Assembly: GCA_036570545.1 (NCBI GenBank)
Contig: DATCXZ010000054.1
Coordinates: forward strand, 1,558 to 65,557
Direction: 5' to 3'
From: Kiloniellaceae bacterium
GTDB lineage: Bacteria; Pseudomonadota; Alphaproteobacteria; Kiloniellales; Kiloniellaceae
DNA length: 64,000 nt
Shown piece after piece: positions 8,570-26,796 of the stretch (position 1 is the stretch's first letter; the number at the start of each line of letters is the position of its first letter). The notes below the pieces were generated by a model. It saw only the letters and a list, made by a program, of their open reading frames with translations, had not been told where the DNA came from and searched no databases. A program made the position numbers and the translations under genes.

Positions 8570-10621
8570 ATGGGACTGATAGTCGGATACATAAGCTACG
8601 CGGCTGCGGCCCTCGCCTACCTGGGGCTTGCGCTCTTCTATCTCTGGCGCGGCGGGTGGGGCGGCCATGGCTTCTATCTGCTCGCCGCGGCCCTGCTGAC
8701 GACGGCCTGGGCCGGTCTGTCGTTCTTCGGCCACGATATCATTCCCGACTATGCCGAAGCAGCCCGGCTGTTGCGACACCTGGCGATGCTCGCCTGGGTC
8801 TGGCTCCTGTGGCACATCGTCGCCTCGCTGGAGCCGCACCAGACGAACTTTCCGCGCCGTCTGCTGCTCGGCTGGGTTGTCATCGTCGGCTCGACGACAG
8901 CGGCGCTCGGCCTCCTCGCGGCGCACAGCCTGATCGGGATCGGCTCGCCGCGGCTGTCCGCCGCCCTGGGACTGGTGATCGCGCTGCTGGGGCTCTCGCT
9001 CACCGAGACGCTCTACCGCAGCTATCAGGCCATCGATCGCTGGGGGATCAAATTCCTCTGCCTCGCAACCGGCGGGCTCTTTGCCTACGACATCTTTCTC
9101 TATGGCGACGGCCTCCTGTTCGGGGCGCTCGATCCGGTGTTCCTCGAGGTGCGCGGCCTCGCCCAGGCAGTGGTGGTTCCCTGCTTCGTCATCAACATCC
9201 AGCGCAGCGAGGCGCGTCACTTCGCTCTTGGCCTGTCGCAGCGCCTGGTGTTCGGCTCGACGGTAATCCTCGGCGCCGGCCTCTACCTGGCGCTCATGGC
9301 GGCGGCCGCCTACTACGTGCGCAGCATCGGCGGCACCTGGGGCAGCGCGGTGCAGACCGTGTTCCTGTTCGCCAGCATCCTGCTGCTCATCGCCTTCCTG
9401 CTCTCGGGCACTTTTCGCTCCTACGTCAAGCATTTCCTGGCGGAGCACCTGCAACAGCAGAAGTTCGACTATCGCCAGGAGTGGCGACGCCTGCTGCAAC
9501 GGATCTCGGCCGGCGACCGGGACGAGCCGCTCGATCTCAGAGTGGTGAAGGCCCTGGCCGACCTGCTGGATAGCCCCGCCGGCGCGCTCTGGTACGTGGA
9601 AGAGAGCAGCCTTGCCCTCGCGACGACCTGGAACCTGCCGGTCTTCAGTCTCGCCGGCAGCGATGCAGCGGCGCTCGCCGACTTCTTCCATGCGCACGAA
9701 GAGGTGGTCGACCTGCGCAACGGCAGCCCAGCCACGGAGCCGACCACCGCCGCGCCGCTCTCCGCCGCCTTGGCCGGCATCGACCAGGCGCGCTTCCTGC
9801 TGCCACTGTTCCACCACGACAGGCTCATGGGCCTGGCGCTCCTCGCCGAGCCTCGGGCGCCGCGGGACGTGGACCGCGAGGATCGCGAGCTGGTGACGAT
9901 GGCGAGCCGGCAGGCCGCAGGCTATCTCTCGGAGCAGCGCGCCGCCCACGCGTTGGCCGAGGCACGGGAGTTCGAAAAGTTCAACCAACGCTATGCTTTC
10001 GTGACTCACGACATGAAGAACCTGGTGAGCCAGCTCTCCCTCATCGTGCGCAACTTCGAGAAGCACGGCGACAGTCCCGACTTCCAACGCGACATGCTGG
10101 CGACGGTCCAGTCCGTCGTGGAGCGCATGAACAATCTGATGGCGCGCCTGTCGGGCGAGCCCGACACCGCCAAGATCGAGAGCGTTGCGATCCGGCCGCT
10201 GATCGAGGCCATCATCGGGGAGAAATGCCTGGCAAACGCCGCCATCATGCTTGACTGCCCGCCCGACCTCAGCGATCTGCGGGTCCGCGCCGACACGCGG
10301 CGGGTCGACGCAATCCTGCGCCACCTCTTCCAAAATGCGATCGAATGCTGCGGCCACGACGGCACAATCGTCGTCGGGCTGCGCCGGGACCACAACGCGG
10401 CGGTCATCGAAGTGCGCGATTCGGGCAAGGGGATGGACCTGGAATTCATCCGCAGCGAGCTGTTCCAACCATTCCGCTCGACCAAGCACGGCGGCATGGG
10501 CATCGGCGCCTTCCAGTGCCGCACCTACGCCCGCGAGCTGGGTGGCGACCTGGAAGCGATCAGCAGCATCGGCGCTGGCACCACCATGCGTGTCACCCTG
10601 CCCGTGTTGCGCGAGGCCTGA
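8570..10621 (+). CDS. prsK: XrtA/PEP-CTERM system histidine kinase PrsK
   Basis: Multi-TM N-terminus, GAF-like middle, H-box THDMKNLVSQL, HATPase motifs (DSGKGM, GMGIGAFQCR). Confidence 0.93.
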   Translation: MGLIVGYISYAAAALAYLGLALFYLWRGGWGGHGFYLLAAALLTTAWAGLSFFGHDIIPDYAEAARLLRHLAMLAWVWLLWHIVASLEPHQTNFPRRLLLGWVVIVGSTTAALGLLAAHSLIGIGSPRLSAALGLVIALLGLSLTETLYRSYQAIDRWGIKFLCLATGGLFAYDIFLYGDGLLFGALDPVFLEVRGLAQAVVVPCFVINIQRSEARHFALGLSQRLVFGSTVILGAGLYLALMAAAAYYVRSIGGTWGSAVQTVFLFASILLLIAFLLSGTFRSYVKHFLAEHLQQQKFDYRQEWRRLLQRISAGDRDEPLDLRVVKALADLLDSPAGALWYVEESSLALATTWNLPVFSLAGSDAAALADFFHAHEEVVDLRNGSPATEPTTAAPLSAALAGIDQARFLLPLFHHDRLMGLALLAEPRAPRDVDREDRELVTMASRQAAGYLSEQRAAHALAEAREFEKFNQRYAFVTHDMKNLVSQLSLIVRNFEKHGDSPDFQRDMLATVQSVVERMNNLMARLSGEPDTAKIESVAIRPLIEAIIGEKCLANAAIMLDCPPDLSDLRVRADTRRVDAILRHLFQNAIECCGHDGTIVVGLRRDHNAAVIEVRDSGKGMDLEFIRSELFQPFRSTKHGGMGIGAFQCRTYARELGGDLEAISSIGAGTTMRVTLPVLREA

Positions 10622-10641
10622 AACTATGCTGATTGAACAGG

Positions 10642-12003
10642 ATGGCTGAGCGAAATCCGCCAAAGCTCCTGCTCGTCGAAGACGACCTCGGCCTCCAGCG
10701 CCAACTGGCCTGGGCTTTCGACGATTTCGAGGTATTCCGAGCCAGCGACCGAGCGAGCGCAGAAGCGGTGCTGAGTCGCGAGCGACCATCGGTCGTCCTG
10801 CTCGATCTCGGCCTGCCGCCGGACGCCGACGGGCCGAGCGAAGGCCTCGCCACCTTGCAGTCCGTGCTGCGCGGCTCGCCCGAAAGCAAGGTCATCATGA
10901 TGAGCGGCCAGACCGAGCGGGATTTCGCGCTAAAGGCGGTGGCCCTCGGCGCCTATGACTTCTACCAGAAGCCCATCGCGCTGGACGAGATTCAGCTCAT
11001 CGTCGGCCGCGCCCAGCGCCTCTTCGAGCTCGAGCAGGAGAACCGCAAGCTGGCGCAGCGTCAGGCCGAGGCACCCCTGCCCGGCGTGGTGACCTCGAAT
11101 CCCGATATGCTGCAGACCTGCCGCGACATCGCCGGCCTGGCGACGACCAACGTCTCGGTCCTCATCGTCGGCGAAAGCGGAACTGGAAAGGAGCTGCTCG
11201 CCCGCGCGCTGCACCAGTTCAGCCCGCGCGCCAAGGGTCCCTTCATCGCGGTCAACTGCGCGGCCATCCCGGAAAACCTGCTGGAGAGCGAGTTCTTCGG
11301 CCATGAGAAGGGGGCCTTCACCGGGGCCATCAAGACCACCGTCGGCAAGGTCGAGCTGGCCAACAAGGGCACCCTCTTCCTCGACGAGATCGGCGACATG
11401 CCGCCGGCGTTGCAGGCCAAGCTATTGCGCTTTCTGCAGGAACGCACCATCGAGCGCGTCGGCGGCCATAAGCCGATTCCGGTCGATATCCGCGTCGTCT
11501 CCGCGACCAACCAGAACCTGCAGGAGCTGATCGAGCATGGCCGCTTCCGGCAGGACCTCTACTACCGCATCAGCGAAGGGGTGGTGGATATCCCACCGCT
11601 GCGGGACCGGCTCGAGGATGCCGCGCTGATCGCCAACAAGCTCGCCCGCGACTATGCCAAGGAACTCAACCGCCCGGTCCGCGGCATAAGCCCGGCAGCG
11701 ATGGCGGCCATCCTCGCCCACACCTGGCCGGGCAACGTGCGCGAGCTGCAGAACTGCATCAAGCGCGCGGTCGCATCGGCGGCGGAGTCGACCATCTTGG
11801 CGCGCGACCTGCGGCTGGGGTCCGATCCGGACACCGTCGATGGGCCGCTGACGCTGAAGCAAGCGCGCTTCCTGGCGGAGAGCAAGGCGCTACGGCAGGC
11901 GCTGGCCATCGCGGCCGGCAATCTTTCCGAGGCGGCACGGGTGCTCGACACCAGCCGCCCGACGCTCTACCACCTCCTCAAGCAGCACGACATCGAGCTG
12001 TGA
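10642..12003 (+). CDS. prsR: PEP-CTERM-box sigma54-dependent response regulator PrsR
   Basis: Receiver ([14 protein letters not shown]), AAA+ ([14 protein letters not shown]), C-terminal Fis-type HTH; follows prsK. Confidence 0.95.
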
Positions 12004-12016: not shown

Positions 12017-13228
12017 TCAGGCGAGGCGCTGCTCGGCGCTGCCGCGGCGTTGCAGGCAGTCATCGATGAGACGATCGAGCCTCGCCATCGAGCGCGCCCA
12101 GCTGTGGTTCGTCTCGACCCGCGCCCGGCCGGCGTTCGCCAGCGCCCGCCGCGCGGCACCGTCGTCCATCAACCTGAGCAGCTTTTCCGCATAGTCCTCG
12201 GCGGAGCGGGCAACCAGGATGTGCTCGCCGGGCACCGCGTCGACGCCGCCCGCCGCCTGCCAGCTCGCCACCACCGGCACGCCCATCGCCATGCATTCGA
12301 GGATCTTGTTCTGGGTACCGCGCGCGATGGCGAGCGGCGCGACGCTGGCGGCTGCGCGCCTGACAGGGTCGCGCACGTCGGGAACCGTGCCGGTCACGGT
12401 AATGCCAGGGCGCTGGCCGAGGCGCCGGATCGCGCGGGAGGGTTCGGCGCCGATGATGGCGAAGCGCGCCGTCGGCCGGCGTTGGTGGATCAGCGGGAAG
12501 ACTTCGTCGCAGAAGAAGGTCGCCGCCTGCTGGTTGGGGAAGTAGTCCATGCGCCCGACGAAGCAGAGGGAATCCGGATCGTAAGGCTCGTTGCCCGGCG
12601 TGAAGTAGTCGCAGTCGACGCCGTTGGGGAACCAGTCGGAGGGGGTCGGCACCTGGTACTTCCTCAGCGTCTCCAGCTCGGCCCTGGTCGTGCAGGTGCA
12701 GAGGTCGAACTGCCGTGCGAGCGCCTTTTCGGCCGCCTCCATCTTGCTGCCTTCGAGCCAATAGCCGAGCGATAGCGGGAACGGCTTGAAGCGCCGGTAG
12801 ACCAGCCATTTCTGCGAATCCATGTCGCCGAAGTCGAGGATCTTCGGAATGCCCCTGACCCCGGCAACGTAGGGCGCCACCGAGGAGCAGTGCGCCAGGA
12901 TGAGGTCGAAGCTCTCCTGCCGCAGGCGCTCGCGCAGGCGCCGCGCGAGCTCGGGGGCGTAGAAGTATCCCATGGAAGAGGGTCCCGGCGTCGGCAGCCG
13001 CGCGATCATCCGCCCCCAGGCACCCGCCGCATTCACCCGGCCCATCATGAAGTCGGCGCAGTGGTCGGCGATGCCGCGGCCGGCCGCGGCCTCTGCCGCC
13101 GAGCGCGCCAGCGAGGCGACCACCACCTCGTGCTTGCGGGCGAGGTGCCGGATCATGTTGAACGGCCGGATCTTGCCGCCGCGCGCGGGCGGGTAGGGAA
13201 AGCGATGGCAGACGAAGAGAATTCTCAT
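12017..13228 (-). CDS. XrtA-system GT4 glycosyltransferase (TIGR03087-like)
   Basis: MRILFVCHRFPYPPARGGKIRPFNM, DMDSQKW, GTQNKILECMAMG. ATG overlaps the asnB stop (ATGA). Confidence 0.88.
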   Translation of the reverse strand: MRILFVCHRFPYPPARGGKIRPFNMIRHLARKHEVVVASLARSAAEAAAGRGIADHCADFMMGRVNAAGAWGRMIARLPTPGPSSMGYFYAPELARRLRERLRQESFDLILAHCSSVAPYVAGVRGIPKILDFGDMDSQKWLVYRRFKPFPLSLGYWLEGSKMEAAEKALARQFDLCTCTTRAELETLRKYQVPTPSDWFPNGVDCDYFTPGNEPYDPDSLCFVGRMDYFPNQQAATFFCDEVFPLIHQRRPTARFAIIGAEPSRAIRRLGQRPGITVTGTVPDVRDPVRRAAASVAPLAIARGTQNKILECMAMGVPVVASWQAAGGVDAVPGEHILVARSAEDYAEKLLRLMDDGAARRALANAGRARVETNHSWARSMARLDRLIDDCLQRRGSAEQRLA

Positions 13229-15165
13229 CCGACCGCCGAGACCTCCTCGGTAAGCTCCGCGGCAAGGTCGGCCGGAGCCCGCCCGTCGAGATAGATCTGC
13301 GCCCAGATCTCCAGGTTCAGCAGGGCAAGGAGATGGTCGGTGTGGTCCTCGCGGCTCGCGAAATGGAGGGCCATGGTCTCCTCGATCGCCGGCCAGGAGA
13401 ACAGGCCGCGCCGCTCGACCGCCTGCTTGGACAGCAGGCGGAGCAGCATGGGCTGCAGGTCGCGCTTCAGCCAGGCGCCGATCGGCGCGCCGAAGCCGCG
13501 CTTCCTGCGCTCGAGGATCTCCGGCGGCAGAATGCCGTCGAGCGCCCGCTTCATCAGGCTCTTGAGGCTGCGCCCGTCGATGCGCAGGGCGGCCGGCACG
13601 CGCGCCGCCAGTTCGACCAGTTCGTGGTTCAGCAGCGGCACCCGGCATTCCAGGGAGCGGGCCATGGTCATCTTGTCGGTCAGCATGAGGAGGTCGTTGG
13701 GGAGCTGGGTCATCAGGTCGACCCGCATCAGCCGGTTGAGGCCGTCACCGCCGCGTGCGAGAGCGAAGGCTTCCTGCAGGCCGTCGATGCGGCCGGCGCG
13801 GGCCTCCTTCAGGAGCCGATCGAGGCTCTCCTGGCCAAAGACCTGCACGTAGCTGCGATAGCGCTCCTCGAACGGCAGGTCGTTCGAAGCCACGAAGGTG
13901 CGCGCATAGCGGGCGACGCTGGAGAGGCGGCCGTGCCGGTCGCTCGGCATCGCCTGCACCAGCGGCGCGATGACGGCGCTGCGCATCCAGGCCGGCAGGC
14001 GCTGATATTGCGCGGTGTAGTAGTCGCCCAGGTAGCGGCTGTAGCCGCCGAACAGCTCGTCTCCACCAACGCCGGAGAGGATGACCGTGACGTCCCGGCG
14101 GGCGAACTCTGCCACCAGGTAGGTCGTCACCAGGGCGGAGTCGGCGACCGGCTCGTCGAGGTGCCAGGCGAGCTTCGGCAACAGGCCGGCGGCCTCCGGG
14201 CGGACGACGATCTCGTGGTGGTCGGTGGCGAAGCGTTCGGCGACGGTCCGCGCAAAGGGCAGCTCGTTGTAGACCTCGCTGGCCGCGTCGCCCTTGAAGC
14301 CGATGGAATAGGTCTTTACCGGCCGGTCGCTGTGACGCGCCATAAAGGCCACGATGGCGCTGGAATCGATGCCACCGCTGAGAAAGCTGCCGAGCGGCAC
14401 GTCGCTGACCATCTCGGACACCACCGCGGATTCCATGGCCGCGCGCAGCCGCTCCGCCCAGTCCGCCTCGCTCGGCGCGTCGTCGGCTTCCGCAGGGATC
14501 TCCCAGTAGCGCTCGATCCTGTAGCTGCCGTTCTCACAGACCAGCAGGCTTGCCGGCGGCAGCTTGCGGATGCCGGCGAACAGCGTCTGGTCGTTGCCGC
14601 TATAGCCGAAGGCCAGATAGTCCTGCAGCGCGCCGGCGTCGATGCCGCGGGCAACGCCGGGCACGGTCAGGAGCGCCTTGATCTCCGAGGCGAAGATCAG
14701 CCGGCCCTCGTGCTCCAGGTAGTAGAGCGGCTTGATGCCGAGCCGGTCGCGGCCCAACACCAGGCGCCGCCGCGGCGCATCCCAGATCGCAAAACCGAAC
14801 ATGCCGAGCAGCCGCCCGACGAAGGAAGGGCCCAGGCGCTGGTAGAGGTGAACCAGCACCTCGGTGTCGCTGCCGGTCCGGAAGCGCGCACCCGCGGCCG
14901 CTAGATCTCGCCTGATCTCACGGAAATTGTAGATCTCGCCGTTGCAGACGGTCCAGATGGTGCCTTCGGCGTCGGAAATCGGCTGATGGCCGGTATCGAG
15001 ATCGATGATCGAGAGCCGGCGCATGCCCATTGCCAGGCCGCGGTCTGCATGGAAGCCTTCGTCGTCCGGCCCGCGGTGGGCGATGACCGCGCCCATGGAC
15101 TCGAGCAGCGACGGGTCGCAGTTGGCGCCATCCCGCAACGCCACCAAGCCGTAGATTCCGCACAT
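13225..15165 (-). CDS. asnB: Asparagine synthase (glutamine-hydrolysing)-like amidotransferase
   Basis: N-terminal MCGI, HRGPD, RRLSIIDL, NGEIYNF, RDRLGIKPLYY, FLSGGIDSS, SGVGGDELFGGY. Confidence 0.93.
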   Translation of the reverse strand: MCGIYGLVALRDGANCDPSLLESMGAVIAHRGPDDEGFHADRGLAMGMRRLSIIDLDTGHQPISDAEGTIWTVCNGEIYNFREIRRDLAAAGARFRTGSDTEVLVHLYQRLGPSFVGRLLGMFGFAIWDAPRRRLVLGRDRLGIKPLYYLEHEGRLIFASEIKALLTVPGVARGIDAGALQDYLAFGYSGNDQTLFAGIRKLPPASLLVCENGSYRIERYWEIPAEADDAPSEADWAERLRAAMESAVVSEMVSDVPLGSFLSGGIDSSAIVAFMARHSDRPVKTYSIGFKGDAASEVYNELPFARTVAERFATDHHEIVVRPEAAGLLPKLAWHLDEPVADSALVTTYLVAEFARRDVTVILSGVGGDELFGGYSRYLGDYYTAQYQRLPAWMRSAVIAPLVQAMPSDRHGRLSSVARYARTFVASNDLPFEERYRSYVQVFGQESLDRLLKEARAGRIDGLQEAFALARGGDGLNRLMRVDLMTQLPNDLLMLTDKMTMARSLECRVPLLNHELVELAARVPAALRIDGRSLKSLMKRALDGILPPEILERRKRGFGAPIGAWLKRDLQPMLLRLLSKQAVERRGLFSWPAIEETMALHFASREDHTDHLLALLNLEIWAQIYLDGRAPADLAAELTEEVSAVG

Positions 15166-15171
15166 CGTCGC

Positions 15172-16389
15172 TCAGCCTCCGCGGTTGGTGCCCGGCAGCC
15201 GCTCATAGACGGCGGCATAGCGCGCCACGACGGCATCCCAAGTGCGCTCGGTCTCCACGTAGCGCCGCCCCGCCTCGCGCATGGCCGGCCAGTCTTCCTG
15301 CCGGTCGATAACCTCCGCCAGCTTGCCAGCCAGCGCGCCGGCATCGTCCGCTTTGAAAAGATAGCCGCGCTGCCCGTCCACCAGGAGTTCCCGATGGCCG
15401 CCGACGTCCGAAGCCACCACGATAGAACCTTGCGCCATCGCCTCCAGCGGCTTCAAGGGGGTAACCAGGTCGGTGAGCCGCATGCGGTGGCGTGGATAGA
15501 CGAAGAACGTCACCAGGTCGTAGTAGCGGCGCACCTGCTCGTGCGGCACCCGCCCGGTGAAGACGACCTGATCGCCGATACCCAGCCGGTCGACCTGGGC
15601 AACCAGGCGCTCCTTCTCCGGCCCTCCGCCGACCACCAGAAGCTTCACTCCCTGCCGTTCGCGAAAGAGGCGCACCATCGCCTCCATCAGGAGCTTCAGC
15701 CCCTCGTAAGCGTAGAAGGAGCCGATGAAGCCGAGCACGATGCAGCCTTCCAGGCCCAGCGAACGTTGCAAGGCGGCGTCGACGCGCCGCTCGGTGGTGA
15801 AGCGTTCGGTGTCCACGGCATTGGGCACCACGGTCACCTTGCCCGCCTCGATGCCGCGGCCGAGGATGTCGTTCTTCAGGCCCTCGCAGATGGTGACGAT
15901 GGCATCCGCATGGCGCAGGACGTAGGTTTCCAGGAACCGCGTGGAGCGGTAGCGCAGATCGCCCTGGCGCGCGGTGCCCCAGTCCACGGCGGCGTCTTCC
16001 CACAGGGAACGCACCTCGTAGACCAGCGGCAGGCCGTGGCGCCGCGCCGTGCGCAGTGCCGGAATACCGTTCAGCACCGGCGAATGGGCATGGAGGACGT
16101 CGGGCCGTGTTTCTTCGATGACCTCATCGAGGCGGGCGCGGGTACGCTCCATCTGGGCCAGCTCACGCAGCACCGGCAGCCTCTGCGTCGCGGCGGCGGG
16201 CTGCGGCGTGCGGTAGAAGGTCCATCCTCCTGCTTCGTCGACGAGGCCATCGAAGCGATACTGCTTGGGCGTCGTCATCTGCACCGTGTCCCAACCGCGC
16301 TTGCGCTGCGCCGCGAGGATGCCCACCGTGCGAAAGCTGTAGCCGCTCTGCAACGGCAGCGAGTGGTCCAGCAGATGAAGGATTCGCAC
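15172..16389 (-). CDS. XrtA-system GT4 glycosyltransferase (TIGR04063-like)
   Basis: VRILHLLDHSLPLQSGYSFRT, HAHSPVLNG, TDLVTPLKPLEAMAQG. GTG start at 16389. Confidence 0.88.
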   Translation of the reverse strand: MRILHLLDHSLPLQSGYSFRTVGILAAQRKRGWDTVQMTTPKQYRFDGLVDEAGGWTFYRTPQPAAATQRLPVLRELAQMERTRARLDEVIEETRPDVLHAHSPVLNGIPALRTARRHGLPLVYEVRSLWEDAAVDWGTARQGDLRYRSTRFLETYVLRHADAIVTICEGLKNDILGRGIEAGKVTVVPNAVDTERFTTERRVDAALQRSLGLEGCIVLGFIGSFYAYEGLKLLMEAMVRLFRERQGVKLLVVGGGPEKERLVAQVDRLGIGDQVVFTGRVPHEQVRRYYDLVTFFVYPRHRMRLTDLVTPLKPLEAMAQGSIVVASDVGGHRELLVDGQRGYLFKADDAGALAGKLAEVIDRQEDWPAMREAGRRYVETERTWDAVVARYAAVYERLPGTNRGG

Positions 16390-16423
16390 CGCCCGCCTCT
16401 CCGCTGTGCCGAGCGGCCGCCGC

Positions 16424-17740
16424 CTACCAGCAGATGCCTTCGTAGTCGACACCTTCCCGGTTCTGCAGGGCAGCCACACCCTGCAGATCGATGACGCAGC
16501 GGCCCGGAGCGGCTGCGGCAATGGCCGGCACGGCATCGGCCGGAACGTGACCGACCACGATGGTTCCGGCACCGGCCAAGGTGTCCTCGATCGAATTGCT
16601 GATCAGCCGGTCGAGGTGCGGGATCTCGCGCTCGATGTACTCGAGATTCGCGCCGGTCAGCCGCGCGAGGTCGACGGAGCGGTCGAAGATCGCCACATCG
16701 AAGCCTTTGCCGATCAGACGTTCCGCAAGCGATACGAAGGGAGACTCGCGCAGATCGTCGGTGCCCGGCTTGAAGGCGAGGCCGAAGAGCGCGACCTTGC
16801 GCCGCCCCCGCCGCTGAACCATCTCGAAGGCCCGGTCGATGTGGCTGTCGTTGCTCGTGAGGATGGAGGTCATCATTGGCAGCTGCAGGTTCTGCGATTT
16901 CGCCAACTCGGCGACGGCGCGCAGCTCCTTCGGCAGGCAGGAGCCGCCGAAGGCGAAGCCAGGCCGCAGGTAGGCCGGAGAAATGTTGAGGTCGCGATCC
17001 TCGCAGAAGATGCGCATGGTGTCGCGAGCATCGATGCCGAGCGCCTTCATCAGCGCGCCGAGCTCGTTGGCGAACGCAATCTTGATCGCATGATAGGTGT
17101 TGCAGGCGTACTTCAGCGATTCGGCAACGCCCGCCGACGTCACGTAGAGCGGCGCGTCGATGCCGGCATAGAGGGCCTCGACTGCCGCGCAGTTACCGGG
17201 CCCCACCTTGCCGACGATGGTGAAGGGCGGCGCGAAGAAATCCCTTACAGCGGCGCCTTCACGAAGAAATTCGGGATTGAAACAGAGCCCGAGGCCGTTG
17301 CCGATCTCCCGCCCGACAATGGCCTCCAGTTTGGGGGCCACCCGTTCCTCGGTGGTCCTCGGGGCCACGGTCGAGCGTACCACCACGCTGTGCGCCTCGT
17401 TCTTGTGGCGGATGGCCTGTCCGATCGAGGACACCACCGCGTCGAGCGCCGCCAGGGACTGGCCGCCGCCGGCGCCGGATGGCGTTCCCACCGAAATCAG
17501 CGAGATCTCGCTTTCCATAACGGCCTCGGTGGCATCGTCGGTTGCCGAGATGCGGCCGGCGGCGCTCGCCTCGGCCATCAGCTTGGTGAGGCTCTGCTCC
17601 ACCACCGGGGCAGTGCCGGCATTGATCATGTCGACCTTGGCGCGGTTGACGTCGACGCCAATGACCTGGTGCCCGAGGCGCGCCAGGCAGGCGCCGGAAA
17701 CCGCGCCCACGTAGCCCATGCCAAATATGGAAACCTTCAT
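16424..17740 (-). CDS. UDP-glucose/GDP-mannose dehydrogenase family protein, AlgD-like
   Basis: GMGYVG, FNPEFLREG, GFAFGGSCLPK, FKPGTDDLRESP, C-terminal EGICW as in AlgD. Confidence 0.9.
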   Translation of the reverse strand: MKVSIFGMGYVGAVSGACLARLGHQVIGVDVNRAKVDMINAGTAPVVEQSLTKLMAEASAAGRISATDDATEAVMESEISLISVGTPSGAGGGQSLAALDAVVSSIGQAIRHKNEAHSVVVRSTVAPRTTEERVAPKLEAIVGREIGNGLGLCFNPEFLREGAAVRDFFAPPFTIVGKVGPGNCAAVEALYAGIDAPLYVTSAGVAESLKYACNTYHAIKIAFANELGALMKALGIDARDTMRIFCEDRDLNISPAYLRPGFAFGGSCLPKELRAVAELAKSQNLQLPMMTSILTSNDSHIDRAFEMVQRRGRRKVALFGLAFKPGTDDLRESPFVSLAERLIGKGFDVAIFDRSVDLARLTGANLEYIEREIPHLDRLISNSIEDTLAGAGTIVVGHVPADAVPAIAAAAPGRCVIDLQGVAALQNREGVDYEGICW

Positions 17741-17843
17741 GCGACCTCAATTTTCATAATGGCGCAGTGAAATCTGACAATGAAAATCGCCCGCCCCGAC
17801 AGATCGTGCCACGAGTGTACGCCGAGGGGAGCCCCCTGCCAGA

Positions 17844-18980
17844 TCAATTGAAGGTCGGGCGCAGCTTTCCCCTGTCCGCTCCACCAATGCTCTTCAGCCG
17901 CTCCGCGACGCGGCCCATCCTGGCTTTCTGCGATCCCTTGACCAAAATGCAGTCGCCATCCCCGACCAGTTGTCCAATGGCGTCCGCGCAGGCTTTGCTG
18001 GTCGGGTACCAGCGATCGGGCTCGTAGTGCCGGGCCAGTTCGCCGACCGCCACAATCATATCGGCGTGGCGACGTGCGACGATCCCGATATCGCGATGAA
18101 ACTGCAGCGCCCGCTCGCCGAGCTCGCCCATCTCTCCCAGCACGGCGAGGCGACGCTTTGCCTGTGCGGCCGGCGCCAGCTCGCCCAGCGTTTCCAGGCC
18201 GAGCCTCATGGACAGCGGATTCGCATTGAAGCTGTCGTCGATCAGCGTGAACCGCTCCAACCACATGGTCCGGAGCCGGCCCTTCGGGGGCTCGAAGGAG
18301 GCCAAGGCTGCGTTCACCGCCAGGTCCGGGATCTCAAGGCGCCGGGCGATAACCCGGGCGATTGCCACAGCCAGGTCAATGCCCCTGCCCGGCACTCGGA
18401 CAACCGGAGCTCGCGCCATGGCTTGCAGCCGGTCGACGAGGGGGTGGTTGTCGCCAAGAATCACCAAACCGCCCGGCGGCACCGCCCTGATCAGGGCCCC
18501 TTTGTGCTCAGCTACGGCCTCCACCGTCTTCAAATATTGCAGATGCGCCGGCCCTATGGTGGTGACCACCGCGATATCGGGACGGGCAAGCCTCGCCAGT
18601 GTCTCGATATGCGCGTCTCCTCCCAGTGCGTACTCAAGAACCAGAATGTTCGGATAGCCGGCACCGGCCATCAGCTTCAAGGCCCTCAGAGGAACCGTCG
18701 CGTAGAGCCAAAGCCGCGCCAGGTTGGTACTCCTGGTCCAGCCGTCATAGCGCAGAATGGTCTGCGGGAAGCCTCTGTCACAGTTCATGTTGTGCTGCGT
18801 GGAACCGACGCTGCCGACCACGGACCTGGCCACTGGCTGGGTCAGCACCGCTGCAATCATCGCCACCGTCGTGGTCTTGCCGGCCGATCCCGTGACGCCG
18901 ATCACGAACGGCCTGCGAGACTTCACCACGCAAGACGACCAGAATGACAAGTAAGGGACGACGACACGCTGTATCGGCAT
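17844..18980 (-). CDS. Compact MurF-like Mur ligase lacking the N-terminal domain (start uncertain, 18980-19106)
   Basis: P-loop VIGVTGSAGKTTT, PDIAVVTTIGPAHL, LIDDSFNANP, LGEMGELG, ILVKGS. Confidence 0.8.
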   Translation of the reverse strand: MPIQRVVVPYLSFWSSCVVKSRRPFVIGVTGSAGKTTTVAMIAAVLTQPVARSVVGSVGSTQHNMNCDRGFPQTILRYDGWTRSTNLARLWLYATVPLRALKLMAGAGYPNILVLEYALGGDAHIETLARLARPDIAVVTTIGPAHLQYLKTVEAVAEHKGALIRAVPPGGLVILGDNHPLVDRLQAMARAPVVRVPGRGIDLAVAIARVIARRLEIPDLAVNAALASFEPPKGRLRTMWLERFTLIDDSFNANPLSMRLGLETLGELAPAAQAKRRLAVLGEMGELGERALQFHRDIGIVARRHADMIVAVGELARHYEPDRWYPTSKACADAIGQLVGDGDCILVKGSQKARMGRVAERLKSIGGADRGKLRPTFN

Positions 18981-19180
18981 CTGCTTGGCCACCGGTGATA
19001 GAAGGCGGCGTCGCGCCACCACCTTCGCGGCCCAATCTGGCGGTATCGTGGGCGTCGGAAGGCTCCGCCGCCAGTCCCCTTTTAGGGACACCAGCGCGTC
19101 CTGCAAAAAAGGCTGGCATCCGGCAGCGGCTTGGCGGCTACAATCGCCTAGGGACGGGTTGCAGCGGGAGCGCTGAAGCC

Positions 19181-20278
19181 TTGCAAACCTTAAACCGCTA
19201 CGTAGATCAGCTTTCGCAGATGTGGCAGGCGCTGAGGGCCGAAGGGCGCTCCGCCCGCGCCGATGCCGGTGTATCCCGGCCGCACCAGCTTTGCGAGCTT
19301 GTGGCCCTGCGGCTCGGCGAGGGAAAGCTGGAGCCCGCCGACTACTACAAGCTGCGCCTCTACCGTCGCGGTCTCAGCTTCGAGGAAAAGCGCAAGTACT
19401 TTTCCAATCAGGCCATTCCGCCGAGCCTGCTGGGCAACTGGGCCGTCGTCGCCCAGGACAAGCTTCTCACCTACTGTGTGTTGAACAGCCTCGGCATCGC
19501 GACCCCGACCATCCATGCCATCTGTCATTCCGTGCGCGAGTACGGCAGGGCTGTCGGCTTGAAGAGCGCCAGTGCGGTCGCCGAGTATCTGCGCAAGGAG
19601 GCCCCCTACCCCCTTATCGCCAAGCCGATCCGCGGCATCTTCAGCCAGGACGTCTGGCTGCTGGAAGGCTACGACCCGGCGGCCGACAGGCTGGTGACGA
19701 CCGGCAGTTCCTTCACGCCGGAGGAGTTCGCGGCCCACTGCTGCCAGCGGAAGACAGGCTATCTCTTTCAGGAACTGCTGCGGCCGCAGGAGGCGATCCG
19801 CGCGGCAATTAGCGACAGGCTCTGCACTCTGCGGGTGATGCTGCGGGTCGAAGACGGCGGGCCGCGCCTGACCCTGACGACCTGGAAAATCTCAGCCGGC
19901 GGAAACGTGGCCGACAACTACTGGCGCGAAGGCAACCTCCTGGCCAAGCTCGACCAGAAAACCGGCCGCATCCTGCACTGCACGACGGGCCTCGGACCGC
20001 GGTATCGCACGGTCGAGCACCATCCGAGGACGGGCATGCCGCTTGCCGGCTTCCAGGTTCCCTACTACCGCGAAGCCGTCGACCTGGCGTTGCACGCCTC
20101 CACGGCCTTCGCCGACATTCGCCTGCAAGCCTGGGATATCGCCATCACGGATTCCGGTCCCGTGCCGCTGGAGGTGAATGTCGTCGGCAGCCTGTTCATT
20201 CCGCAGCTCCTCAACCAGAAAGGCCTCTGGGCCGGCGATTTCCGCGATCTCGTGCTGACCTACCGCCGCAGCGCATAG
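19181..20278 (+). CDS. Sugar-transfer-associated ATP-grasp protein 1 (start TTG 19181 or ATG 19220)
   Basis: QDKLLTY, IAKPIRG, YLFQELLRPQ, LCTLRV, VADNYW..G, AWDIAITDSGPVPLEVN. Confidence 0.8.
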   Translation: MQTLNRYVDQLSQMWQALRAEGRSARADAGVSRPHQLCELVALRLGEGKLEPADYYKLRLYRRGLSFEEKRKYFSNQAIPPSLLGNWAVVAQDKLLTYCVLNSLGIATPTIHAICHSVREYGRAVGLKSASAVAEYLRKEAPYPLIAKPIRGIFSQDVWLLEGYDPAADRLVTTGSSFTPEEFAAHCCQRKTGYLFQELLRPQEAIRAAISDRLCTLRVMLRVEDGGPRLTLTTWKISAGGNVADNYWREGNLLAKLDQKTGRILHCTTGLGPRYRTVEHHPRTGMPLAGFQVPYYREAVDLALHASTAFADIRLQAWDIAITDSGPVPLEVNVVGSLFIPQLLNQKGLWAGDFRDLVLTYRRSA

Positions 20279-20296
20279 CGCAGGCGGCATGGCCAG

Positions 20297-21472
20297 TCAC
20301 ACTCTGGGGCGGTTCGCGAAGCCGAGCCCCAGGAAGCGCCAGGCGTCGTCGCGGTTGAAGACCTCCACCCACGGCGTGTCGAGAATACCTCGGCGATGGG
20401 CGAGCTGGTTCACCGTGAGGTCGTAATGCCAGTTTCCTTCCAAGAGGAGCGGCCCACTGTCGGTAAGCGCGACGTCCCAGCCGAGGCTCTTCTGCACCGC
20501 GAAGACCCGGGCCGCCGCCTGAACCAGATCCCGCACCTGATCCCAATCCGGCAGCGCCATCCCGGTCATGCGCGTGCCGGTCAGCGGATGATCATCCACG
20601 TACTGCGGTAGGTTGTTCACCAGGATTGTCCCGCGTCCGCAGAGGCCGGTCTCGACGTCGACCGGCACCACGATGCCGCCCTGCGCCAGGTTGTCGGCCG
20701 GCCCCTTGCCGCCGCCGACCCTGAGGGCAGCCCCCACGACCACCGGCTCCGGCCGCAGGTGCGTGACGACGCGCACCGTGTGAAGCACGTCGGGCATGAC
20801 GGCGGCGAGGATCGGATGCGACCGCAGCCGCGGTTCGATGAGCACGCCGCCGTTGTGGAAATAGCGCCCACAGTGCCGCCAGATGGCGGCCAGATCGATC
20901 TCCTCCCCTCCCGGCAACGTCCGCCAAGCGAGCCCCTGGGGCGCCCGGCTGCCCAGGCTCAGCACGCCCCAGCCCTTGGTTCCGGCAACCGGCTTCAGCA
21001 CGACATCGGCGATCTCGTTCGCTTCCATCCAGCTTCGCAGCGCCCCTTCCGAGCGGATCGTGAGGAACGGGCCCGCAGACTGGTCCTGCGTGACGACGGC
21101 CAGGGTCTTCGACACCGGCAAGCCCGCCTTCGTGGCCACCTCGTTGAACTCGAGCTTGCGATCGACGAGGTGGTGATGCTCAGCCGGATTGAACGCGCAG
21201 AAGACGCGCCAGCTCTGAAAACGGCCTATGTAGGAGCGCTTCATCTCCATCGGCAGCCGAGGGTCAGACAGCCCGAGGTTATAGTAGTCCACCCCCCCGA
21301 TCCGGTTGCTCCAGAGCAGGCGCTGCTGCTCGATAAAGCGCCGCAGGACGGACGTCGGCATTTCGCGATGGCGCCTGTGGCAGCGGAAGTCTTCGACAGC
21401 CTGGGCAGGAATCGCCCGTAATCGCCAAACGACCTTCGCGAGATCTTTCGCGGACACCTTGCCTCCCTGCAT
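20297..21472 (-). CDS. Sugar-transfer-associated ATP-grasp protein 2
   Basis: VDRKLEF, VLKPVAGTKGWGV, LIEPRL..HP, LHTVRVVT, ADNLAQGGI, GWDVALTDSGPLLLEGN. Confidence 0.82.
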   Translation of the reverse strand: MQGGKVSAKDLAKVVWRLRAIPAQAVEDFRCHRRHREMPTSVLRRFIEQQRLLWSNRIGGVDYYNLGLSDPRLPMEMKRSYIGRFQSWRVFCAFNPAEHHHLVDRKLEFNEVATKAGLPVSKTLAVVTQDQSAGPFLTIRSEGALRSWMEANEIADVVLKPVAGTKGWGVLSLGSRAPQGLAWRTLPGGEEIDLAAIWRHCGRYFHNGGVLIEPRLRSHPILAAVMPDVLHTVRVVTHLRPEPVVVGAALRVGGGKGPADNLAQGGIVVPVDVETGLCGRGTILVNNLPQYVDDHPLTGTRMTGMALPDWDQVRDLVQAAARVFAVQKSLGWDVALTDSGPLLLEGNWHYDLTVNQLAHRRGILDTPWVEVFNRDDAWRFLGLGFANRPRV

Positions 21473-21723
21473 TCAGCTTGTTGTGGGGCTTATCGAAGAT
21501 TTCCGCTTCATTTTCCAGCTATGGCGCGGGCGCGCTAGAGTGTCCTTTTCGGCATGCGACCATCATGCCCGATGCTCGGTATTATGATAATTTCGATAGC
21601 CTGTGCCTTTGGGCTCACCCGCAAAGGCGGCTGATCTCTCGCAGCAAGTTCTCGTAAGTCAGCACAGGCAGGCGATCCGCCTTGAGGACCTCTAGCGCCG
21701 GGAGACGGGGCCGAGGCGAGGCA

Positions 21724-24321
21724 TCAGGCGGGGTTGGGTATCAACTGCTCCGATATGACCAGGTTGCGATACCACACGAAGAAAGGCGGATGCTCCTCGC
21801 GCGGGTTCTTTTCATAAAGATGCGGCATGAGCCATATCTTGCCGACCCTGTTCTCGGGGCTTACCGGCGAGGAGGCGTAGAAATCGTTGTCGATCACGAG
21901 CCTCTGCCGGCCGCCGTGCTCGCCTTCGATGGCGCCCCAGATGCTCACATGGCTGAGCCGGGGATCGCCCTTTTTCGCGTCCGCCTGCCAGGGCCCGAAG
22001 CGCAGCCGGATCTGGATCGTGATCCACTTGTCGTCGATCAGGCGGAAGCAGTTCTCCGCCAGATTGTTCCAGTCTCTCCTGCTTCCGTTCGCGAGTATCC
22101 TCGGGCAAGCGTACAGACCATTGGGCTGGCTGTTGCTATGAAGCTGACCACCAATGCGCCCGATGCGCTTGCCGAAGCCCATCGGCCGTGGGCAGCGGTG
22201 ATAGGCGTGAAGCGCATGATTCGCACTATGATTGATGGCGGTTTCCAGGCGCATGCAGGAGTCGGCGCGGACGCCGCGGCGGTCGCCGGTCGAGATCAGC
22301 GCAATCTTGGAGCCGGTGCAGCCTCCCTTGCCGTTGGTATCCTTGAAGCAGCGCCGCTCCTTGCGATAGTTCGGGCTGTTGGGATCGCAATCGGTCCAGA
22401 TGAAGGTGCAGGAATAGCGCACCTGGAACTGGATGTAGACCTCCTGCGCCGCCGCGTCCGGGCCGACCTGGAAGGCATAGTCGGGGCTGAAGTTGGTTTT
22501 GAAGTTGCCGGCCGCTCCTGACCCGGTATTGGAGGGGAAAGTGAAGCGCAGGCCGCCGATCTCGGGATCCGCCTGCGCCAGCTTCGCCTGGGGATGGTTG
22601 AACTTCTGGCTGACGTTGCGCCAACTCCCGTCGCGCTGGGGCGGCCCGCTCGCGACCACCTTGGCATGGTAGAGCACCTCGCCTTCGCCCATCGGATCGC
22701 AGAGCACTGCGGTCGCGCAAACGCGCCGCCAGTCGGCGCTCTCGGCGATCTCGAGGGGAATGACCTTCTCGCCGTCGTGCGGCGCGCGCGCCTTGGGTGC
22801 GCCAGCCGGCGCCGGCGCCGGCGGCTGTTGCGGACTGTCGGCCGCCACGGTGTGCAAGACGGCCGGGGCCGGCGCGGCGGCGGAGCGGTCCAGACGGTAG
22901 AGCACGAAGCCGAGATCGACATTGGTAATGCCGAAGAAGGCATCGACCTCAGGCACATAGCGCCACTTGGAATAGACCTTTCCCGGGCGCTTCGCGTCGC
23001 GCATAGCCCGCGCCGCTTCCCCTTTCGGCTCGGCTTCCCGGATGGCGCCGGTCGCCGGATCGACGATGAGGACGCGCGCATGGCCATCCCAGAGCACCAG
23101 CAGCCCCGAGGCATGCTGGGCCAGCCCCCAGGCCTTCATTCCCGCCTTCGGCCACTCGGCGACGAGCCGCGCGTCGAAGCCCTCGGTCTGGCCCGGAAGC
23201 GGCCAGGTGTAGGCGACCAGGCGGTCCTTGGCGCCTCCCCCGATGATCGTGTAGAGGATGCCCGCTCGCTGATCGAAGACGGCAGGGCCGTCGATGAACC
23301 TGCCATAGGGATCGCGGTCAAAGGAGCGGACCACGGAGCGGGTCTGCGGATCGATCTCGTGCCAGCCCTGCTCTCGCCCGACGTGGAGGATCACGTTGCC
23401 GCTGCGCCGGTCGACCACGGCGCGCGTGAAGCGCGCGTAGCCATCGAGCGCCGGCATGGGCTGCCAAGTTCTGCTGTGGGCGTCGTACTCCCAGGCCGAG
23501 GAGCCACCCATGCCGGCGCTGCAGTACTCGACGGTGCCGAACAGCCAGTAGCGATCGATCTTCGGCACGTAGAGGAAGCCCTGGTAGGTGTGGGTTGCCG
23601 GCGGCCCCACGGCGGGGGCCGGACAGGCATCCTTCTCGCCGTCGCCGTCGCTGTCGTCCAGATAGGGCCCCGTCAGCGGCTGGGGATCGGTCTCGCGCGT
23701 CCAGGTCAGCGTCTCGAAATCGAAGGCGTAGACCTCGTTGCCGCCGTAGTCGGCATGGCCGCCGCCATGCACACGGAATTCGCCTCGCGCGTGGTCGAAA
23801 GCGCCTCCATTCCAGGCGCCGATCACGTTCGGCGCACGGTGGCACTTGATCTCGCGGCAAAAGTCAAACTCGCCCTCGCGCACCAGGTGCGGCCGCAGGG
23901 CGCTCCCTGGCAGGACGGCGAACTCGCCCGGCTGCGGGAGCAGCGCCGCGAGACGCTTCCACACCGCGTTCTGGGTGCGCACGGACTGCGACGGAGCGGC
24001 GGCAGGCGCCGTCGGCCGTTCGTTTGATAGAGCCTGCGAATTATGAAAACTATCGGCCCGAACCGGCTGTGCTGCAGCAGGGACGGCCCCGCCGCCGGCG
24101 TCGCCGGCCGGCGTGATCCTGGTGCCCGGGATATAGCTCGGTGCCGGCGGCAGCCCAAGGAATTCGCGCGGACCCTCCGCCTGCGCCCGCGTTGCCCCGA
24201 TCAGGCTCAGCACCGATAGCGCCGCGGCAAGCAGCGCCACAGAGAGTGCGATCGCGCGCCTCGGCTCCGCTATGGGCGGCAGCGCCGCCCCGCGCCTGTC
24301 AGTGTCGACATTCAGGATCAT
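21724..24321 (-). CDS. Large secreted protein (865 aa): Kelch-like propeller plus Cys-rich, possibly lyase-like beta-sandwich C-terminal domain
   Basis: ATG 24321; signal peptide ending RAQA|E; AWNGGAFD..GGGHADYGGNEVYAFD..W repeats; Pro/Ala linkers; C-terminal VYIQFQVRY..KWITIQI..GKIWL..WYRNLVIS. The 5' extension of the called ORF lies antisense to the sulfotransferase and is treated as spurious. Confidence 0.7.
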   Translation of the reverse strand: MILNVDTDRRGAALPPIAEPRRAIALSVALLAAALSVLSLIGATRAQAEGPREFLGLPPAPSYIPGTRITPAGDAGGGAVPAAAQPVRADSFHNSQALSNERPTAPAAAPSQSVRTQNAVWKRLAALLPQPGEFAVLPGSALRPHLVREGEFDFCREIKCHRAPNVIGAWNGGAFDHARGEFRVHGGGHADYGGNEVYAFDFETLTWTRETDPQPLTGPYLDDSDGDGEKDACPAPAVGPPATHTYQGFLYVPKIDRYWLFGTVEYCSAGMGGSSAWEYDAHSRTWQPMPALDGYARFTRAVVDRRSGNVILHVGREQGWHEIDPQTRSVVRSFDRDPYGRFIDGPAVFDQRAGILYTIIGGGAKDRLVAYTWPLPGQTEGFDARLVAEWPKAGMKAWGLAQHASGLLVLWDGHARVLIVDPATGAIREAEPKGEAARAMRDAKRPGKVYSKWRYVPEVDAFFGITNVDLGFVLYRLDRSAAAPAPAVLHTVAADSPQQPPAPAPAGAPKARAPHDGEKVIPLEIAESADWRRVCATAVLCDPMGEGEVLYHAKVVASGPPQRDGSWRNVSQKFNHPQAKLAQADPEIGGLRFTFPSNTGSGAAGNFKTNFSPDYAFQVGPDAAAQEVYIQFQVRYSCTFIWTDCDPNSPNYRKERRCFKDTNGKGGCTGSKIALISTGDRRGVRADSCMRLETAINHSANHALHAYHRCPRPMGFGKRIGRIGGQLHSNSQPNGLYACPRILANGSRRDWNNLAENCFRLIDDKWITIQIRLRFGPWQADAKKGDPRLSHVSIWGAIEGEHGGRQRLVIDNDFYASSPVSPENRVGKIWLMPHLYEKNPREEHPPFFVWYRNLVISEQLIPNPA

Positions 24322-25583: not shown

Positions 25584-25701
25584 AGGATTGAATTCCAGAA
25601 GCCTTACGGCCTAACTAGTGGAATCGCGCGCCATTGCCGGCTTTGGCCAGCGGATGCCACCGCTGCGGACGATCGCATCCGGCACTTGTAGGGTTGGAGA
25701 C

Positions 25702-26796
25702 ATGTGGACTGATCGGCTTTACAGGCGGCGCGAAGCCTTCCGGCTGCTTAGGACCGCGGGGGCGGAGGTGAAGGCTGACATCGGCAAGAGCCAGTTCCGG
25801 CAACTCCTGGAAATCGGCGTTCTCGGCCTGAAAGGCTACCGGGCAGCGGACTACTACCAGCTCGAGCTGTACAAGGATGTCGCTCGCGCCAAGAAATTCA
25901 TGACCAACGGGGAGTACAACAGGATCCGCAGCAGGCTGAACGAGCCCGCCTGCGGCATCATCGAGTTCAACAAGTGGATCTTTGCAAAGTATTGCGAATC
26001 GCTTGGCATTCCCACGCCGCACTGCTATGGCGTTTTTCATAGGGAGTACGGCTTCGACGAGAGCGAGAAGCCTCTGCGCGACCTGCCGAGTCTCTCCGGC
26101 CTCCTCGACTCCGTCGGCGGCGCCATCGTGGTAAAGCCCCTGGCGGGCGATCGCGGGGACAATGTCCGGGTGTTCGACGGTATCGACCCCGCCCGCCAGG
26201 TCGTGGTCGCGCCCGACGGCACCGCCTGCAGCTATCGGCAGCTCCATGATTTTTTCCTGACCAGAAAGACACCCTGGCTGTTGCAGGAGAAGGTCAAGCA
26301 GCACGGCGTTCTCGCCGATCTGCATCAATCGTCAGTGAACACGGCCCGCGTCATCACCCTGCGGGGCGACAGCGGCGATATCGCGATCCTGTCCGCTGCG
26401 CTGCGGATCGGCGTCGGATCCGCGGAGATCGACAACACCACCCTTGGCGGCCTCGCCGCGGAGATCGACCTGGAAACCGGAGTCTGCCGAGCCGCGACGT
26501 CGCGCTTCAGCATCCGGACGACCGTGGCGCACCCGGACAGCGGCTGTCGTATCGAAGGCCTCGCGCTTCCCTACTGGGATCTCGTGAAGGCGAGCGCTGT
26601 GAAGGCGCATCGCTTCCTGCCCTTCGCGCGCAGCCTCGGATGGGATATCGCGTTCGGCATCGAAGGACCGATCATCCTGGAGGTCAACGGCTCCTGGTAC
26701 TACAACCGGGTGCAGATGACCGGCCGCAGCCTCTGGGAAACCGAGTTCGGAAGCTCCCTCGCCGGTCAGGGCGGGCAGCGCAAGCGCAGGCTCTGA
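25702..26796 (+). CDS. Sugar-transfer-associated ATP-grasp protein 3
   Basis: NKWIF, VVKPLAGDRG, LLQEKVKQH, SVNTARVIT, IDNTTLGGL, GWDIAFGIEGPIILEVN. ATG 25702 with GGAG RBS. Confidence 0.85.
   Translation: MWTDRLYRRREAFRLLRTAGAEVKADIGKSQFRQLLEIGVLGLKGYRAADYYQLELYKDVARAKKFMTNGEYNRIRSRLNEPACGIIEFNKWIFAKYCESLGIPTPHCYGVFHREYGFDESEKPLRDLPSLSGLLDSVGGAIVVKPLAGDRGDNVRVFDGIDPARQVVVAPDGTACSYRQLHDFFLTRKTPWLLQEKVKQHGVLADLHQSSVNTARVITLRGDSGDIAILSAALRIGVGSAEIDNTTLGGLAAEIDLETGVCRAATSRFSIRTTVAHPDSGCRIEGLALPYWDLVKASAVKAHRFLPFARSLGWDIAFGIEGPIILEVNGSWYYNRVQMTGRSLWETEFGSSLAGQGGQRKRRL

Follow-up and report, generated by a model that had tools for sequence, protein, structure and literature searches.

A short MurF-like Mur ligase encoded in an XrtA/PEP-CTERM exopolysaccharide locus of a Kiloniellaceae bacterium

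The window analysed here, a 64-kb stretch (64,000 nt) of contig DATCXZ010000054.1 from a Kiloniellaceae bacterium, encodes a short MurF-like Mur ligase whose gene is surrounded by genes for exopolysaccharide (EPS) synthesis (Table 1). Up to about 54.7 kb, the window is essentially all XrtA/PEP-CTERM exopolysaccharide locus. The models TIGR02916, TIGR02915, TIGR02917, TIGR03087, TIGR04063, and TIGR03013 score above their cut-offs, as do TIGR03007, TIGR03018, TIGR03027, TIGR03097, TIGR03694, and NF041538. This bears out an earlier interpretation made from the DNA letters alone (the sequence-only reading), which had placed the gene in an EPS cluster away from dcw genes. Indeed, no dcw genes were found among the sizeable open reading frames (ORFs) of the window, of which 12050-12775, 12890-13294, and 34384-35094 (all plus strand) were left unscanned. 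The MurF-like gene is the first of a co-directional minus-strand run, in which it is followed by genes for a UDP-sugar 6-dehydrogenase, the glycosyltransferase stp3, an AsnB-type amidotransferase, and stp1. On its other side, across about 200 bp, lies a divergently transcribed gene for an ATP-grasp ligase, an arrangement that had also been noticed before.

The ORF of the MurF-like gene is translated without interruption from 17844 to 19106 on the minus strand. TTG 19106, where the longest ORF begins, probably lies too far upstream to be the true start, because the closest homolog in an alignment with 21 homologs begins where ATG 18980 stands. This ATG is the likelier start, and GTG 19019 and 19022 are possible alternatives. 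For the divergent ATP-grasp gene, TTG 19181 is probably the true start, with no overlap between the two genes. The source is a soil organism that is present in several soil metagenomes: a soil metagenome run from 2016 contains window positions 15000-22000 in nearly identical form (93% of sampled words), and several further metagenomes from soil, landfill, and waste have them at 95-99% identity. Short pieces, at 16378-16718 and 17920-18071, also occur in a soil metatranscriptome. The latter piece, 152 nt long, falls inside the MurF-like gene and is a weak hint that this gene is transcribed. A tblastn search of plasmids gave no match.

Architecture and family of the MurF-like protein

The MurF-like protein belongs to the Mur ligase superfamily, as its central (Mur_ligase_M, PF08245, 75.1 bits, cut-off 24) and C-terminal (Mur_ligase_C, PF02875, 52.7 bits, cut-off 28.4) domains both exceed the gathering thresholds of Pfam. 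The best NCBIfam model is TIGR01143 (murF), which matches in three stretches with 206.6 bits and thus below its curated cut-off of 288.6; every other Mur ligase model falls well behind it. The MurF equivalog models PRK14093 (130 bits, cut-off 544), PRK10773 (91 bits, cut-off 551), and PRK11930 (47 bits, cut-off 804) stay far short of their thresholds. An AlphaFold2 model built from 51 sequences is confident (pLDDT 94.5, pTM 0.92), and its ten top matches in the PDB are all MurF (best E 7.7e-21, TM 0.75, 21-24% identity). Behind them rank MurC, MurD, MurE, pseudomurein ligases, cyanophycin synthetase, FolC, and MurT. In both sequence and predicted fold, the protein has MurF as its nearest known relative. 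MurT-, PgsB-, FolC-, and Mpl-like identities were rejected because of their profile and fold scores.

The catalytic equipment of a Mur ligase is complete. The four motifs GSAGKT, DDSFNANP, LGEMGELG, and VKGS, reported as intact in the sequence-only reading, were all located in the ORF, and the remaining catalytic positions are kept as well. Glu, His, and Lys of the central domain are positions with established roles in Mur ligases, the Lys corresponding to the carbamylated Lys of MurD, MurE, and MurF. In an alignment of about 22 homologs (41-68% identity), T72, G73, G76, K77, E158, H188, and K202 are invariant, and so are the family-specific positions W366, S370, and C373. Resemblance to MurF is greatest in the C-terminal domain, which contains the characteristic MurF motifs (DDxYNANPxSM, LGxMxELG, KGS). 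Loss of a 'GxHN' motif was also considered as a family marker and was dropped, because GxHN is not general in MurF.

Substrate binding in Mur ligases is divided among three domains: the N-terminal one takes the UDP-MurNAc-peptide, the central one ATP, and the C-terminal one the incoming amino acid(s) (PMC10214165). Compared to MurF (EC 6.3.2.10; TIGR01143; PDB 4QF5, 4CVM, 1GG4, 3ZL8), the protein from the window shares the ATP-binding central residues and the C-terminal motifs, but it is only 21-24% identical in structure-based comparison and deviates in three regions. First, the N-terminal domain (domain 1) is absent, as had been supposed. Pfam finds no such domain, and only about 25-40 residues, forming one helix, precede the P-loop, whichever of the ATG and GTG starts is used. 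MurF has three domains, with about 80-100 residues in the N-terminal one, an architecture seen neither here nor in the homologs; the median number of residues before the P-loop is 47 in the family proteins as called and 109 in ordinary MurFs. Second, the central domain is shortened by about 40-45 residues. The sequence-only reading had recognized this, but it set the junction between GRG and IDLAVAIA, whereas the alignments put it just before VPGRG: query residue 231 pairs with residue 237 of the Pseudomonas aeruginosa MurF and residue 240 with 286, and a second alignment with MurFs has a 40-column gap at the same place. Third, a helical insertion of about 30 residues after the NMN motif, which had been overlooked, is not found in ordinary MurF. 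Judged from the sequence, the acceptor-binding parts of MurF have been removed or remodelled.

This architecture is not peculiar to a single gene. A protein search retrieved 3339 relatives, of which the best 120 are 41-69% identical to the query, nearly all 350-410 aa long, and built from the same two domains. More than 100 close homologs, with 355-410 aa, share the architecture of the protein from the window; where they are named, the annotation is almost always MurF. Named carriers are Bryobacterales, Steroidobacteraceae, Rubrivirga, Quisquiliibacterium transsilvanicum, and Chromatiales. A hidden Markov model (HMM) of the family separates its members (525-567 bits) from other MurFs (148-254 bits); the contrast set for the HMM, the alignments, and the tree consisted of ordinary and Patescibacteria-type MurFs, 24-32% identical, from a scan of genome contigs. 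Among 1.84 billion representatives, the HMM matched 12,680 proteins at E<=1e-30, but only roughly the first 75-100 match in a single stretch and have 355-400 aa. Matches below about 285 bits break exactly at the position of the family's deletion. In a neighbour-joining (NJ) tree, as proposed for a check in the sequence-only reading, the family is monophyletic in 30 of 30 bootstraps. A search of the literature outside subscription titles found no paper on this family and nothing that joins a Mur ligase or murF to PEP-CTERM or to amide-linked uronic acids.

These data also bear on the possibility that the gene is a decaying or truncated murF. It does fall short of MurF in length, and the GC content at third codon positions (0.78) is slightly lower than in the neighbouring genes (0.84-0.90). 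However, the frame is open, all catalytic residues are present, the structure model is confident, and the short metatranscriptome piece hints, weakly, at expression; decay of the kind that the sequence-only reading had named as counterevidence was not found in the gene. Since architecture, catalytic residues, and monophyly are conserved across the family, with the same design in over 100 homologs at 41-69% identity, a pseudogene has next to no likelihood. As far as its sequence tells, the gene is an intact and functional member of a tight, conserved clade of MurF-type ligases.

Similar proteins outside this clade are the short MurFs of Patescibacteria (CPR), such as the ligases of L012 and L009 (431-438 aa). 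They, too, have few residues before the P-loop (28-34) and an insertion after NxNN, and 25 of 30 NJ bootstraps join them to the family and leave ordinary MurF outside; yet they are about as far from the family (Kimura distance 1.42) as ordinary MurF is (1.47). In contrast to the family, however, they retain the beta segment of about 45 residues in the central domain and are encoded in a dcw context, where a MurF without domain 1 seems to be the norm in Patescibacteria. MurT of the MurT/GatD complex (PDB 6H5E) likewise has a Mur fold without the nucleotide-binding N-terminal domain and acts on a substrate that is lipid-linked instead of UDP-linked. Yet MurT (6h5e_D) ranks only 40th in the fold search (TM 0.42), the C-terminal domain of the MurF-like protein is PF02875 and not MurT-specific, and profile scans of the neighbouring genes found no GatD-type glutaminase adjoining it.

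Other superfamily members, such as PgsB/CapB and cyanophycin synthetase, have been repurposed to form amide bonds of surface or storage polymers other than peptidoglycan. By analogy, the MurF-like protein could be a polymerising ligase that builds a poly-amino-acid chain on a polysaccharide, resembling teichuronopeptide. PgsB also lacks the nucleotide-binding N-terminal domain, and the occurrence of several ATP-grasp and Mur-type ligases per cluster suggests that more than one residue is added. The protein, however, shows no sign of polymerising activity: the PgsB model TIGR04012 reaches 15.5 bits where its cut-off is 222.7, and the one for cyanophycin synthetase 32.7 bits, both far behind the murF model; among the fold matches, cyanophycin synthetase comes only in 24th place; and the C-terminal motifs conserved in the family are those of MurF. 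A polymerising function appears improbable.

Partner ligases and genomic contexts

The divergent gene and two others in the window encode ATP-grasp ligases of the ATPgrasp_ST family (PF14397), all three above the gathering threshold of 31.4. A model of the first, built with AlphaFold2 from database homologs, is confident (pLDDT 95.1) and has a RimK/Ddl-like fold. In profile comparison, ATPgrasp_ST is nearest to RimK-type ligases (E 0.006), whereas in the fold search RimK, Ddl, VanA, and LysX are all about equally far from it (E ~1e-8, TM ~0.4). RimK-type ligases join amino acids to the carboxylate of a larger molecule, and the profile and fold matches of ATPgrasp_ST would fit such a function. 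With three paralogs in the window, it therefore seems more likely that the ATPgrasp_ST partner aminoacylates a sugar acid than that it supplies a dipeptide. The sequence-only reading had postulated a repurposed pair in the style of Ddl and MurF. What remains of this idea is a MurF-derived ligase outside dcw, in a polysaccharide locus, and with a conserved ATP-grasp pairing; the partner, however, is a PF14397 protein and not of the Ddl type. A precedent for the partner step exists in the capsule of Campylobacter jejuni, where the C-terminal ATP-grasp domain of Cj1438 (a TupA-like amidoligase) amidates the C6 carboxylate of glucuronate downstream of UDP-glucose dehydrogenase (PMC11800379). Unlike the PF14397 partners, Cj1438 belongs to another ATP-grasp family, adds serinol or ethanolamine phosphate instead of amino acids, and works without a Mur ligase.

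We compared 12 non-redundant genomic contexts of family members, this window included. None is a dcw cluster, and the order murE-murF-mraY typical of MurF thus occurs neither in the window nor elsewhere in the survey. Instead, nine of the 12 are polysaccharide clusters, with genes for Wzx, Wzy, GT4 and GT2 glycosyltransferases, deacetylases, UDP-glucose dehydrogenase, NeuB, dTDP-sugar synthesis, and pyruvyl transferases. The closest relative (69% identity) keeps a triad known from the window, namely an ATPgrasp_ST gene (74%) divergent from the ligase gene, which is followed by the dehydrogenase gene (82%). The pairing recurs in more distant relatives: ATPgrasp_ST genes lie near a family member in four contexts, and the Rubrivirga chromosome has five. 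AsnB-type genes also recur beside family members in several contexts.

A second recurrent association is with DD-peptidases and Ddl. In five of the 12 contexts, a DD-peptidase adjoins the ligase or is fused to it. Genes with an S11 peptidase or beta-lactamase fold are adjacent to family members in four context types, and one member is fused to VanY. An exhaustive search found four long family representatives, each of which is fused to Peptidase_S11 or Beta-lactamase2 with intact SxxK, SxN, and KTG motifs. Signal peptides were not evident in these S11 and beta-lactamase-fold partners. A Ddl gene lies by family members in two related Wzx/Wzy clusters (L003 and L088), each with two short MurF-like family members and AsnB-type genes. 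The same two clusters also encode more distant Mur ligases, consisting of central and C-terminal domains, that are fused to peptidyl-tRNA hydrolase (PF01195), three in L003 and two in L088; this architecture is unusual.

Could the family nevertheless consist of genuine peptidoglycan MurFs, housekeeping or alternative, that add D-Ala-D-Ala or D-Ala-D-X to UDP-MurNAc-tripeptide and lie in EPS loci by chance? MurF is the best match in sequence and fold, domain-1-less ligases of the MurF type hold the dcw position in Patescibacteria, and the association with DD-peptidase, VanY, and Ddl would suit cell-wall metabolism too. However, the protein scores far under every MurF equivalog cut-off, and the dcw context is missing in all 12 cases, while synteny with ATPgrasp_ST and the sugar dehydrogenase is conserved. 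Moreover, as many as two members of the family can lie beside three other Mur ligases in a single Wzx/Wzy cluster, and the deletion in the central domain sets the family apart from the Patescibacteria type. Proteobacteria also normally have a full-length murF in the dcw cluster. A role in peptidoglycan synthesis is very unlikely in the light of these observations.

Another explanation takes the peptidase genes as its starting point. Modules of just two genes, for the ligase and an S11 peptidase, exist without polysaccharide genes, and the fusions to DD-peptidase folds without evident signal peptide point to a two-step reaction in the cytoplasm. The ligases might then make or recycle soluble D-amino-acid peptides, or take part in the turnover of cell-wall peptides with a cytoplasmic DD-peptidase, and their location in EPS loci would be incidental or regulatory. 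The predominance of polysaccharide clusters is at odds with this scenario, as are the window and the closest relative, where the gene is partnered with ATP-grasp ligases and a sugar dehydrogenase instead of a peptidase. We regard it as unlikely.

Possible role in polysaccharide decoration

Taken with moderate confidence, the comparisons indicate a MurF-derived, polysaccharide-associated ligase family that retains MurF-like chemistry and is systematically mis-annotated as MurF. The retained ATP machinery, the MurF-like C-terminal domain, and the links to Ddl, VanY, and S11 peptidases argue that the family would still add D-Ala-D-Ala or a close analogue, albeit to a different carboxylate. For the protein from the window, we consider it reasonably probable that it is a MurF-type ligase dedicated to EPS, which puts a cap, most likely D-Ala-D-Ala, on an aminoacylated uronic acid. 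The adjacent dehydrogenase would form the uronic acid and thus provide a new carboxylate, which one or more of the ATP-grasp ligases would amidate with amino acid(s). At the expense of ATP, the MurF-like enzyme would then activate the terminal carboxylate of this product, or else the uronate directly, as an acyl-phosphate and couple it to the incoming amine, most likely D-Ala-D-Ala. An AsnB-type enzyme may amidate a remaining carboxylate, before the peptide-decorated repeat unit would be flipped and polymerised. In this scheme, the acceptor, the sequence of the reactions, and the transfer of D-Ala-D-Ala are inferred. The sequence-only reading had assumed a nucleotide sugar as acceptor; because the domain for binding UDP-MurNAc-peptide is missing, the acceptor could equally be lipid-linked as nucleotide-linked.

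Several points weigh against this proposal. No DD-peptidase or Ddl gene was found among the scanned ORFs of the window, and the link to D-Ala-D-Ala therefore rests on relatives of 41-50% identity. The Patescibacteria dcw clusters demonstrate that loss of domain 1 alone is no proof of a role outside peptidoglycan synthesis. Some family members, those of the Steroidobacteraceae type and of contig L002, lie outside polysaccharide clusters, including those in the recurrent two-gene module with S11. Furthermore, the sample of contexts is small (n=12) and was picked on how long the contigs were. Finally, we infer from the genes that the EPS of this locus carries amino acids at all.

A bolder version of the proposal, which we deem rather improbable, would give the EPS repeat unit a peptidoglycan-like stem on a uronic acid, capped by D-Ala-D-Ala and used outside the cell for cross-linking by DD-transpeptidation or as an exosortase acceptor. 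If it were true, DD-transpeptidation could use the stem as its energy-rich donor and thereby link polysaccharide chains with one another or with the cell wall. Alternatively, it could be the acceptor to which exosortase attaches PEP-CTERM proteins, which would answer the question of what the substrates of exosortase are attached to. Although nearly all other signature genes of the system are there, the exosortase XrtA itself had no match among the scanned ORFs of the window (unscanned on the plus strand were 54865-55251 and the three ORFs listed above).

Mur ligases are textbook enzymes of peptidoglycan synthesis and antibiotic targets. To our knowledge, few of their relatives have been found in other functions, namely FolC, PgsB, MurT, cyanophycin synthetase, CfbE, and the pseudomurein ligases. 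Should the proposal hold, the family would be a MurF-derived branch dedicated to the peptide decoration of secreted polysaccharides. Amino acids in amide linkage to uronic acids are chemically well known from O-antigens, capsules, and EPS, but the genes responsible are, as far as we know, mostly unassigned; enzymes for this modification would then have been identified. That the ligase is repeatedly fused to DD-peptidase folds of the cytoplasm further suggests that D-Ala-D-Ala chemistry extends beyond peptidoglycan, which bears on possible interactions of beta-lactam- or vancomycin-like molecules with biofilm matrices. On the practical side, the label 'UDP-N-acetylmuramoyl-tripeptide--D-alanyl-D-alanine ligase' on members of this family makes murF counts too high, and models of essentiality and metabolism can be misled by it.

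Other features of the exopolysaccharide locus

Table 1. Positions of the MurF-like gene, its motifs, and other features. Positions refer to the window unless a contig of another family context or contrast sequence (L003, L009, L012, L088) is given.
Feature	Position	Strand	Remarks
Short MurF-like Mur ligase gene	17844..18980	-	378 aa from ATG 18980; longest ORF reaches 19106
P-loop GSAGKT (ATP binding)	18873-18890	-	aa 73-78; invariant in family
Family-specific insertion, ~30 residues	~18651..18746	-	Between NMN motif and Mg-binding Glu; helix 86-105 of model
Catalytic core, central domain	18492..18641	-	Glu (VLEY), His (TTIGPAHL), Lys (EHKGAL)
VLEY, with Mg-binding Glu	18630-18641	-	Invariant in homologs
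TTIGPAHL, with catalytic His	18540-18563	-	Invariant in homologs
EHKGAL, with catalytic Lys	18492-18509	-	Invariant in homologs
Deletion junction VVR|VPGRG	18357..18401	-	~40-45-residue beta segment of ordinary MurF missing
MurF-type C-terminal domain	17895..18278	-	57 bits to residues 286-450 of P. aeruginosa MurF
DDSFNANP motif	18216-18239	-	MurF-type C-terminal domain
LGEMGELG motif	18117-18140	-	MurF-type C-terminal domain
VKGS motif	17931-17942	-	MurF-type C-terminal domain
Divergent intergenic region	18981..19180	.	MurF-like gene vs ATP-grasp gene 1, ~200 bp
ATPgrasp_ST ligase 1	19181..20278	+	365 aa from TTG 19181; PF14397 112.5 bits
ATPgrasp_ST ligase 2	20297..21472	-	PF14397 148 bits; rimK_rel_E_lig 62.9 bits
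ATPgrasp_ST ligase 3	25618..26796	+	PF14397 139.8 bits
Possible fourth ATP-grasp protein	29340-30617	+	ATPgrasp_Ter 21.3 bits, weak, below cut-off
Nucleotide-sugar 6-dehydrogenase (UDP-glucose dehydrogenase-like)	16424..17740	-	Directly downstream of MurF-like gene
AsnB-type amidotransferase	13225..15165	-	Closest model TIGR03108 (XrtA/PEP-CTERM system amidotransferase), 544.3 bits, below cut-off 816.9
Protein without family match, 1087 aa	21724-24987	-	Inside locus
Sulfotransferase gene	33473-34375	-	Inside locus
Sulfotransferase gene	35136-36416	-	Inside locus
Heparinase II/III-like protein, 1023 aa	36212-39283	-	Inside locus
B12-dependent ribonucleotide reductase NrdJ	58975-62694		Past locus end (~54.7 kb)
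Patescibacteria-type MurF-like ligase	L012 9989-11305		Directly after mraW, ftsI
Patescibacteria-type MurF-like ligase	L009 9938-11233		Directly after mraW, ftsI
Mur ligase-PF01195 fusions	L003 2875-4815, 4845-6737, 12787-14760		
Mur ligase-PF01195 fusions	L088 4818-6731, 12744-14558		

Among the genes of the locus, those for glycosyl transfer and sugar supply encode stp1, stp3, an stp2-like transferase, the priming transferase EpsB_2, WecB, GalE, a GDP-mannose enzyme, and UppS. Assembly and export are represented by a chain-length determinant, a tyrosine kinase, a MOP flippase, a Wzy-like ligase, and an export protein, regulation and sorting by PrsK, PrsR, PrsT, two exosortase-associated acyltransferases, and a PEP-CTERM protein of the EDSAP-1 family. 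Besides the AsnB-type amidotransferase, the modification genes encode a deacetylase, two sulfotransferases, and a heparinase II/III-like protein. The presence of the last three, together with the 1087-aa protein, suggests that the product of the locus is a sulfated, heavily modified polysaccharide. The ORF 41920-42801 matched no model.

Sigma-54-like sites with up to two mismatches are not above chance in the window as a whole (24 versus 26.75 expected), and no sigma-54 consensus occurs in the divergent intergenic region 18981-19180. A perfect consensus, TGGCACGCGCCTTGCT, lies at 2637-2652 on the plus strand, about 60 nt before the EDSAP-1 gene (2712-3713), and would fit control by the activator pair PrsK/PrsR, which is encoded at 8570-12003. 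A site with one mismatch, CGGCACCGCCGTTGCA, is located at 39278-39293 on the plus strand, just 5' of wecB (39372) and the flippase gene.

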